DNA from: Escherichia phage ECO95 1-6-1
Sequence record: OR845765.1
Strand: one strand, 5' to 3'
Length of the DNA: 1,647 nt
In this document: in pieces, positions 131 through 1,647 of the stretch
How positions within the stretch are numbered: the stretch's first letter is position 1
Layout of the letters: the number at the start of each line of letters is the position of its first letter
Position numbers and translations under genes: made by a program
Notes under the pieces: generated by a model
The model's database searches: none
Seen by the model: the letters and a program-made list of their open reading frames with translations, nothing else
What the model was told of the DNA's origin: nothing

Positions 131-168
131 GCCAGCGTCTTCTTTCAGGTCAGTCGCTGGCTTTTTTT
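131..168 (+). terminator. Candidate Rho-independent terminator acting on plus-strand transcripts (convergent with the esterase gene)
   Basis: Seen in sequence: GCCAGCG (131..137) is the exact reverse complement of CGCTGGC (155..161), with one further C:G pair possible at 139/153, giving a GC-rich stem. It is followed immediately by a 7-nt T-run (162..168). The loop is rather long (~13-17 nt), which lowers confidence. On the minus strand the hairpin is followed by UAAAAGG rather than a U-tract, so it looks unidirectional. Confidence 0.5.
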
Positions 169-169
169 A

Positions 170-1647
170 TTATGCTGCCGGTGCATTTATCTCCAGCACC
201 AGACTTTCTATCTCAACGCCATACGCTGCATTTTTTGTAACATCCGTCAGCGTCAGCGCATTCAGTCCCAGTGTCAGACTGTCTTTTATAACCTGGAATG
301 CCGGGCCAGCCACTCCATTCAGTTTCGGAGTAACCGTGGCACTGCCGGCGGTGAACACCAGCTCCAGCGTCTGCCAGTCGTTACCGTAATCGCCGAACTC
401 CCCCAGCTTCGTGTTTCCGGCTTTCCTGTGATGCATCAGATTCACTCTGCCGTCAGTGGTCTGAGTGAAGTACGACATCAGGAACGGATTACCGGTACCC
501 GTCATCGCCACACCATCAGGAACGGGAGCATCCGTATACAGATAAATCCCCAGCCCGAACTGATTGTTGGTCAGTGCGCCTGACAGGCGGAACTTACAGG
601 TCAGTCTGCCGCCCTGTGTCAGCAGGGTAATTGCGTCATCCACCGGATGCGTCAGGGACCAGGTTTTATTGCTCTGCCTGGTGATCTTAAATACACCATC
701 TGACAACTGAATTCCGCCATCCTTAATGCTCCAGCCCTGCGCAGCAGCCTCTCCGGCTGCCGGCAGCAGGGAGATTGTGCGAACGGACGTATCTGCAGAC
801 GGACCCGATGGCGTGTTGCCGCCGGGCGAGGGTTTGATTTCCGGTGCCTTACCACTGATGAAGGCTGAGGTGCGCCCGGCTGCGTTCAGAATAGCGGTTG
901 CCAGACGATCCGGAATAATGCTCCTGCGCGCCCATGAACTGAAATGTGTCGGGCGGTTTGATGATACCTGGTTTCCATTCGTTCTCGATGCCGCACCGTA
1001 ATATCCTGATGCCGGAATATCCGGATCTTCTGCCGGCGCGTTAGTGGCGGTATTGACGCCGTTACCGTCTGTCATGAAGGGCACAAAATAAACGCCCTCA
1101 CTCTCCCTGTTTTTATACCCGCCGTACACGGTGTCGTACTGGGTAGCGTATGTATTTTTCCAGTAATACGTCGTGTCACCACAAATCCACGGCACATCTG
1201 CAGCACTGCCACCATGGCACTGCGCGTTAAACACGGAGAGGTCAACACGAAACTGTGTCAGCATGGCTGTAAACAGCGCAGGTTGCTGTGCGTGGGTGGC
1301 GGCGCTCATGTCAAACTCTCCCTGCATCCAGCACACCGCCAGCAACACATTTTTCGGGTTCTTCTGTAATGCAGCTTTGGTGCGCGCAATCAGGTCCTGA
1401 TATAACGGTTTACCCACACCCCAGCGCGCCGAATCCTGGCTGGCCCCCGCGTCCGCACTGAATGTCCCCTCCGCGCCCTGGGTGAATGCCGAACCACCAC
1501 GACAGCATGGTACCAGCAGGATCCCCGCGTTATTCGGGATATACGGGAGCAGTTTTTTGGCAATATGTAACCCCTGGCCGACACAGCCGTACTGCCCTTT
1601 GCTCAGGTCTGCCTTCGGATGATTCAGCGTACTCATATCCTGCACAT
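170..1647 (-). CDS. nanS: Sialate (9-O-acetyl-N-acetylneuraminate) O-acetylesterase, SASA/SGNH-hydrolase family, prophage NanS-p-like; partial, N-terminus lies beyond the right window edge; carries a C-terminal putative carbohydrate-binding domain
   Basis: Seen in sequence: uninterrupted 491-codon reading frame on the minus strand ending at TAA (revcomp of 170..172), and still open at 1645..1647, so the GTG at 1643..1645 is an artefact of the window edge, not the real start. Translation contains SASA-family hallmarks: CWMQGEFD (the QGE block, 1310..1330) and a C-proximal RPTHFSSWARR block with a candidate catalytic His (944..946), followed by a P/G/S-rich linker and a beta-rich C-terminal domain. 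Family assignment is from recognition of the motifs, not from a database search. Gene symbol reflects the NanS-like family, with the phage paralogue (nanS-p) most likely. Confidence 0.85.
   Translation of the reverse strand, partial: VQDMSTLNHPKADLSKGQYGCVGQGLHIAKKLLPYIPNNAGILLVPCCRGGSAFTQGAEGTFSADAGASQDSARWGVGKPLYQDLIARTKAALQKNPKNVLLAVCWMQGEFDMSAATHAQQPALFTAMLTQFRVDLSVFNAQCHGGSAADVPWICGDTTYYWKNTYATQYDTVYGGYKNRESEGVYFVPFMTDGNGVNTATNAPAEDPDIPASGYYGAASRTNGNQVSSNRPTHFSSWARRSIIPDRLATAILNAAGRTSAFISGKAPEIKPSPGGNTPSGPSADTSVRTISLLPAAGEAAAQGWSIKDGGIQLSDGVFKITRQSNKTWSLTHPVDDAITLLTQGGRLTCKFRLSGALTNNQFGLGIYLYTDAPVPDGVAMTGTGNPFLMSYFTQTTDGRVNLMHHRKAGNTKLGEFGDYGNDWQTLELVFTAGSATVTPKLNGVAGPAFQVIKDSLTLGLNALTLTDVTKNAAYGVEIESLVLEINAPAA

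Follow-up and report, generated by a model that had tools for sequence, protein, structure and literature searches.

The closest described relatives of the element treated here, a hairpin and T-tract at positions 130 to 168 of a 1,647-nt stretch of Escherichia phage ECO95 1-6-1 (OR845765.1; this whole stretch is hereafter called the window), are small RNAs (sRNAs) encoded by prophages of E. coli. EcOnc51 (prophage Sp12, 2237479-2237555, plus strand) and EcOnc52 (Sp4) were reported as orphan peaks of Hfq cross-linking and analysis of cDNA (Hfq-CRAC) in E. coli O157:H7 Sakai, and a Rho-independent terminator was predicted for both (Tree et al. 2014, PMC4104026, Table S2). In enteropathogenic E. 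coli (EPEC) E2348/69, the sRNA PasA was mapped on the minus strand from 743499 to 743415 (major form, 85 nt) or to 743264 (minor form, 236 nt), and an Hfq fragment recovered by RNA interaction by ligation and sequencing (RIL-seq) covers 743267-743294 (Pearl Mizrahi et al. 2021, PMC8550237). The RNAs have thus been catalogued before, though barely characterised. The window is the interval between the nanS-p esterase and the holin of a Shiga toxin 1 (Stx1) phage, and comparison with the above loci indicates that its hairpin and T-tract are a real intrinsic terminator specific to the plus strand, in a unit that is a member of the PasA/PasC/EcOnc51 lineage. We consider it likely that this terminator works on the plus strand only, where it stops read-through from PasA and probably also ends an sRNA of its own of ~63 nt. 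This goes beyond the preliminary description of the sequence, as the hairpin forms the 3' body of an sRNA bound by Hfq and is not a bare insulator.

The terminator itself consists of two features:
Positions 130 to 162, plus strand: terminator hairpin (ViennaRNA fold, covariation among paralogues).
Positions 162 to 168, plus strand: T7 tract, the U-tail of the RNA, where the RNA is released and where its 3' end presumably binds Hfq (sequence, RIL-seq boundary, hybrid reads described below, IMG/VR copies).

The plus-strand sequence of positions 125-172 is CTTTTAGCCAGCGTCTTCTTTCAGGTCAGTCGCTGGCTTTTTTTATTA. Within it, the arm GCCAGCG (131-137) can pair at every base with CGCTGGC (155-161), and the ViennaRNA fold adds the pair A130-U162, giving a G+C-rich outer stem of 8 bp with 6 G-C pairs (130-137/155-162, AGCCAGCG/CGCUGGCU); beyond this stem, a U138/U154 mismatch is followed by the inner pairs 139-140/152-153 and then 142-143/148-149. 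The fold has a free energy of -16.0 kcal/mol on the plus strand (z -5.0 to -5.3), and none of 200 dinucleotide shuffles folds as well. The T7 tract at 162-168 stands directly 3' of the stem and is followed by A169 and by TTA at 170-172, so that the plus strand carries a stable G+C-rich hairpin with an immediately adjoining U-tract, as intrinsic terminators do. The tract ends one base before the esterase stop codon (170..172, minus strand), exactly as had been described before. Moreover, the hairpin with its U-tail is probably an Hfq-binding module.

On the minus strand, the hairpin is equally stable (-15.5 kcal/mol, z -5.9) and begins 7 nt past the esterase stop codon, which could speak for a role mainly on the late sense transcript, where it would stabilise the 3' end, mark a processing site or act as a weak non-canonical esterase terminator within a bidirectional element. 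Such a role is very unlikely, however, since the minus-strand RNA continues after the hairpin as UAAAAGG with no U-tract, the plus-strand upstream flank is CCTTTTA with no A-tract 5' of the hairpin, a canonical sense-strand terminator lies further downstream, and every 3' end and Hfq fragment published for this place is on the antisense strand. Bidirectional terminators between convergent genes resemble the present element in placing a hairpin tail-to-tail between convergent transcription units, but here the U-tract occurs in one orientation only, and a bidirectional intrinsic terminator was ruled out because the upstream A-tract is absent. The preliminary description had held that a U-tract exists in the plus orientation only and that the hairpin does not end the esterase mRNA; the former agrees with the sequence, and the latter would fit both the missing minus-strand U-tract and the presence of holin S, R and Rz downstream on the same strand.

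A functionless inverted repeat that arose by chance beside an A/T-rich stop region would be in keeping with a simple terminator scan, which found terminator-like sites at the level of shuffled sequence (2 sites versus 1.8 expected), flagged only the smaller sub-hairpin 147-163 and missed the true stem. As this consensus scan was no richer than shuffled sequence and misses both the stem and the promoter, it was given no weight; what speaks against chance is the shuffle z-scores (z = -5), the conservation, the covariation between paralogous hairpins and the 3' ends known from publications. In nine distinct paralogue hairpins (window-type, PasC and PasA; a small and hand-picked set), 93% of the cells are paired and four pairs are changed on both sides, including C-G to U-A and G-C to A-U, values that were reached by 0-1 of 500 shuffles. 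In addition, a pattern search of IMG/VR yielded 61 hairpins of the window type and 27 of the PasC type, and the arrangement T6-8 + A + TTA + TG(C/A)TGCC, abutting the esterase stop, was identical in 85 of these 88 viral copies. Given these compensatory changes and this placement, and given that published experimental 3' ends and Hfq cross-links contradict it, an origin by mere chance has next to no probability.

Upstream of the hairpin, the homology with Pas sRNAs was found to continue over a whole transcription unit, which is represented by two further features:
Positions 102 to 168, plus strand: body of a second sRNA unit of the EcOnc51/EcOnc52 type, a PasA/PasC paralogue (Tree 2014 Table S2 with a +136 offset, alignment).
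Positions 71 to 100, plus strand: putative promoter-like element from the alignment, with a -35 TTGACA (71-76), an 18-nt spacer, TGT (92-94) and a weak -10 GAAAAA (95-100).

The alignment took in PasA, PasC, the PasA variant of Sakai and the window. It contains the shared blocks AATAT(C/A)TTGACA, CTGTCTGT(C/G)A(G/A)AA, ATAAGT and TTTT(A/G)AGCCAGC...GCTGGCT(T/G)TTTTT, in which the -35 TTGACA, CTGTCTGT, ATAAGT and the stem and T-run are invariant, so that homology with the Pas family includes both promoter and terminator. Relative to PasA and PasC, the second unit lacks ~15 nt after the -10 region. The PasA/PasC promoter reads TTGACA-N18-CAGAAA, and the published 5' end, where transcription starts, is 6 nt beyond it; for the second unit, a start at ~106 and an RNA of ~63 nt are predicted, and the 5' edge of the Hfq-CRAC peak (window 102) lies 4 nt from this predicted start. 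An independent promoter for the second unit seems rather likely. The location is also that of the Pas lineage, between a sialate esterase and a holin and in antisense orientation (annotations of H-19B, Stx1_14040, E2348/69 and Sakai). The 5' arm of the hairpin at 131-140 (GCCAGCGTCT) and the PasA seed GCCAGCACCU given in the supplement of Pearl Mizrahi 2021 are homologous, and the arm therefore may take part in target pairing.

The second unit corresponds to EcOnc51 and EcOnc52, which represent the same sequence unit, bound by Hfq, located between an esterase stop codon and a holin and antisense to the late operon; the Sakai copies read GGCTCTTTTTTT versus GGCTTTTTTT in the window and sit in non-Stx prophages. 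Hybrid reads of EcOnc51/EcOnc52 from RNase E cross-linking, ligation and sequencing of hybrids (CLASH; Waters et al.) contain CTTTCAGGTCAGTCGCTGGCTCTTTTT, and the CLASH reads of enterohaemorrhagic E. coli (EHEC) end in ...GTCGCTGGCTCTTTTT, within the T-run. At Sakai prophage Sp12, the coordinates of the 2014-2017 papers (Tree 2014, Waters 2017) are 136 nt below those of NC_002695.2, and four CLASH read segments give a constant offset of +136 between the genome versions. If this offset is ignored, the sRNA candidates land on the wrong unit; with it, EcOnc51 becomes AAGTCTCTACAAAC...GCTGGCTCTTTTTTTATTATGCT, that is, window 102-177 and hence the second unit.

The first unit of the spacer is PasA, of which the window holds only the tail:
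Positions 1 to 22, plus strand: 3' end of PasA, with the terminator 3' arm GTGCTGGC (6-13) and a T7 (16-22) (probe reverse complement, published coordinates).

The published PasA northern probe (reverse complement CTCTCCACCGAAAGTCAGTGCTGGC) and the published coordinates match the upstream unit of the spacer. Window 1-400 can be aligned with the E2348/69 locus with 2 mismatches and one indel of 2 nt in the loop, and the alignment equates window 22 with 743415, 168 with 743267 and 171 with 743264. Window 22 is therefore the major PasA 3' end, positions 1-22 are the PasA terminator tail and the window starts inside PasA, while the minor isoform ends at the T-tract 162-168, on whose last T (window 168) the RIL-seq fragment also has its 3' boundary, 743267. 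The earlier proposal that the terminator stops convergent transcripts is thus supported on two sides, by PasA and a PasA/PasC paralogue (EcOnc51/52) on the plus strand, and by published ends and boundaries at window 168-171 in near-identical loci.

The same data can be explained with the hairpin as a back-up terminator only. The second unit would then be a dead relic of a PasA/PasC duplication, the hairpin would catch PasA read-through and shield the esterase and stx genes from antisense transcription, and EcOnc51/52 would be a 3' fragment of long PasA. This account is possible, if on the unlikely side. It draws on the 236-nt form, which was detected by the PasA probe and by coverage, and on the PasA terminator, whose 17-nt loop and interrupted U-tract (UGUUUUUUU) make leakage plausible; a CLASH read across the putative promoter of the second unit and the weak -10 element also speak for it. 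However, the Hfq-CRAC peak begins at 102, outside the spacer and at most 4 nt away from the predicted start, and conservation with the PasA/PasC promoter covers the -35 and the proximal spacer. The RIL-seq interval at the second unit was RNA2 in 100% of its chimeras, which is sRNA-like, and its chimeras relative to those of PasA went from 119/4983 to 54/116 between growth conditions (PMC8550237). This ratio shifts about 20-fold, which argues against a mere fragment of PasA and hints weakly at independent expression of the second unit.

The distribution of the second unit also bears on the back-up account. PasA stands in tandem upstream of at least 48 of the window-type IMG/VR copies, whereas three contigs (L052, L063 and L068) join unrelated sequence at window 52-54, and the promoter-like element has therefore been kept there without PasA. 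In 5426 complete E. coli genomes, the second unit was found in 677, at 2304 places, and there are ~100 solitary copies on plasmids, next to a truncated esterase remnant. The persistence of unit and promoter without PasA at three junctions and on ~100 plasmids is not what a passive catcher of PasA read-through would lead one to expect.

Several points weigh against the likely account, a plus-strand terminator for PasA read-through and for an ~63-nt sRNA of its own. The -10 GAAAAA is poor and was not called by a promoter scan. A CLASH read runs across the putative promoter of the second unit, and some RNA here is therefore read-through from PasA; another read lies beyond the terminator, so that termination is incomplete. 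As well, the published catalogue (Tree 2014) reports no northern blot for EcOnc51/52, CRAC peak edges are not transcript ends, and the expression data all come from near-identical multi-copy loci, whose reads cannot be assigned to one copy. For the combined function as terminator of PasA read-through and of its own sRNA, which remains the likely one, the hairpin, its orientation, the 3' ends on the T-tract, the Hfq association and the read-through form rest on the sequence or on published near-identical loci, and we infer the independent promoter, the termination efficiency and the regulatory targets.

In this combined function, a polymerase reading past the upstream PasA gene would reach the hairpin and produce the 236-nt minor PasA isoform, while a short RNA of ~63 nt, corresponding to EcOnc51/EcOnc52, would probably start at its own PasA-like promoter (71-100). 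In both cases, transcription of the U-tract 162-168 would be accompanied by folding of the hairpin 130-162, and the RNA would be released roughly one base before the esterase stop codon is reached. Once free, the hairpin and U-tail would act as the 3' module by which the sRNA binds Hfq. The late minus-strand transcript, by comparison, would carry the hairpin with no U-tract and continue to holin S, where Q must override the sense-strand terminator.

Variation among copies of the second unit was observed at several positions. The hairpin loop is polymorphic in length (window 141-146), with TCTTCTTT, TCTTCTTTT or TCTTCTTTTT in L003, L005 and IMG/VR loci, and the T-tract is interrupted near window 161-163 in some copies (GGCTCTTTTT). 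On large E. coli plasmids (L008 700-940 and ~100 matches), the second unit is 92-94% identical and occurs without PasA, with a truncated esterase pseudogene adjacent; these copies have a G-U change in the stem (GCCAGTG), and their promoter-like region is fully conserved. Contig L092 joins the promoter and 5' body of the second unit to a PasC-type loop, a hybrid that indicates recombination within the stem. Some prophages (L006 680-720, L007 690-730) have an esterase–holin spacer of only ~150 nt and are without both sRNA units, and a vestige of the tail and 3' arm persists in them, GGCTGGCTCACTTTTTATGATGATGCC.

The genes around the terminator are those of the late region of Stx phages, and the following features are on the strand opposite to the sRNAs:
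Positions 170 to 1645, minus strand: phage sialate O-acetylesterase of the nanS-p/yjhS type, C-terminal 491 codons (list of open reading frames, Pfam, annotations).
Positions 192 to 202, minus strand: esterase mRNA site CUGGUGCUGGA, with complementarity to the seed of PasA (sequence; Table S7 of Pearl Mizrahi 2021).

Over window 1-260, identity is 99.2% with phage H-19B and 98.9% with YYZ-2008 (NC_011356) and many Stx1a-converting phages, and a prophage of E. coli 90-3040 matches this segment at 100%. In H-19B and related records, the minus-strand gene order is stx1A, stx1B, esterase (yjhS/nanS-p type), holin S, endolysin R and Rz. This stx1AB-esterase-S-R-Rz array is a late operon, and according to a review, transcription of the stx genes is shared with the late genes (PMC8065619). 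The minus-strand reading frame 170..1645 contains the SASA carbohydrate esterase domain PF03629 and DUF6645 in Pfam, and ends with TAA at 172..170 (plus-strand TTA 170-172). A second in-frame TAA follows at 169..167 on the minus strand, so that a TAA TAA pair occupies window 167-172 and its second member overlaps the end of the T-tract. The esterase–holin spacer is 447 nt long, with window 1-169 forming part of it, and its two tandem units lie on the plus strand of the window, antisense to the late operon. The site CUGGUGCUGGA, ~20 nt before the esterase stop codon and complementary to the PasA seed CCAGCACC, is the PasA RIL-seq target motif listed for both esterase genes of E2348/69 (Table S7, PMC8550237); on the strength of this complementarity and listing, PasA may pair in trans with the 3' end of the mRNA of the neighbouring esterase gene.

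Beyond the window on its minus strand (L002 3806..3780), there is a strong intrinsic terminator in the sense orientation, GGCCGTCAGTGGGTGACACTGGCGGCT + TTTTTGTTTT with an 11-bp stem followed by UUUUUGUUUU. It lies ~365 nt downstream of the esterase stop, ~195 nt past the left edge of the window and ~55 nt upstream of the start of holin S, so that the esterase transcript meets a canonical terminator before the lysis genes. In lambdoid phages, a Q-modified polymerase would need to read through such a terminator ahead of holin S. The gene order is consistent with read-through of the esterase transcript into the lysis genes as one late operon. Hfq-bound RNA of the sense strand of the esterase–holin spacer is also listed in the EPEC RIL-seq tables, as 'pasA.E2348C_0689.IGR'.

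Both tandem sRNAs are perfectly complementary to the esterase–holin intercistronic stretch of the late mRNA. A wider role is conceivable but decidedly unlikely, in which the second unit would be an Hfq-dependent ~63-nt sRNA of its own with the seed GCCAGCGUCU, as against GCCAGCACCU in PasA, and would form together with PasA a cis-antisense switch on the late mRNA. If this were true, the sRNAs of the lysogen would regulate host and virulence mRNAs in trans, while on induction the abundant Q-antiterminated late transcript would titrate the sRNAs or be cleaved at the duplexes, and Pas regulation would consequently be coupled to holin expression and the timing of lysis.

Three points appear to be absent from the papers examined, namely that EcOnc51/52 equals the 3' portion of "long PasA", that PasA and the second unit are paralogues standing in tandem, and that one terminator module docked on the esterase stop is common to PasC, EcOnc32 and the second unit. 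They are of annotation level and involve no new mechanism. They explain an oddly oriented terminator of Shiga-toxin phages by antisense sRNAs between the nanS-p esterase and the lysis cassette, and they join separate catalogue entries, EcOnc51/52 of EHEC, "long PasA" of EPEC and the PasC and EcOnc32 terminators, in one sequence module. This is useful for designing experiments on Pas sRNAs and also for annotation, because no RNA is annotated at the esterase–holin spacer in the phage and genome records inspected.

Among named systems, AgvB and AsxR (RF02702/RF02703) are alike in being short (51-60 nt), Hfq-bound, prophage-encoded and antisense to the late operon, with a conserved 3' terminator and a variable 5' end; they differ in their slot, between stx or moron genes and the esterase, and no match in sequence or structure was found. 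Membership in these two families was ruled out by the lack of any Rfam match (cmscan, E <= 1) in the window and three related loci, and the PasA/PasC/EcOnc51 lineage is outside Rfam. Pairing of the second-unit 5' region (CUACAAACAUAUAAGG) in the manner of the AgvB sponge of GcvB, or with the RIL-seq partner escD, was also rejected, as RNAduplex gave z from -1.2 to +1.2, the level of shuffles; GcvB mimicry was no better than shuffles when 106-130 and 106-168 were paired with the GcvB region (z +0.5 and -0.7).

The long PasA isoform ('pasA.E2348C_0688.IGR', PMC8550237 Tables S3, S5 and S6) is nearer, as its minor 3' end and RIL-seq boundary fall on the T-tract of the window. In that paper, the 236-nt RNA is treated as a longer form of PasA and not as a separate gene, and pasA copies were stated not to be tandem duplicates (Zhu et al. 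2026), so that the paralogy of the second unit went unrecognised. PasC of E2348/69 prophage PP5 (79 nt, northern-validated, Hfq-dependent) shares the outer stem GCCAGCG/CGCTGGC, the U7-AUUA tail (UUUUUUUAUUA) and the promoter family with the unit of the window, and it ends at 1290832, with the neighbouring esterase ending at 1290830, i.e., 2 nt from the stop codon. PasC differs in its loop and inner stem (-22.7 vs -16.0 kcal/mol), in being a single unit and not a tandem, and in a PasA-like 5' body ~15 nt longer than that of the window unit. In Sakai Sp3, EcOnc32 is encoded on the minus strand (L132 275-363), and the annotated hypothetical reading frame ECs_0817, which overlaps it on the same strand, may be spurious. 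EcOnc32 (~112 nt, northern-validated) has a terminator, GCCAGCGCAGA...TCTGCGCTGGC-TCTTTTTT-ATTATGCTGC, that has the same outer stem and lies directly beside the 3' remnant of an esterase, but its 5' body and promoter are unrelated and its stem is longer (11 bp), which suggests that EcOnc32 and the unit of the window have a common 3' module to which different 5' bodies can be attached.

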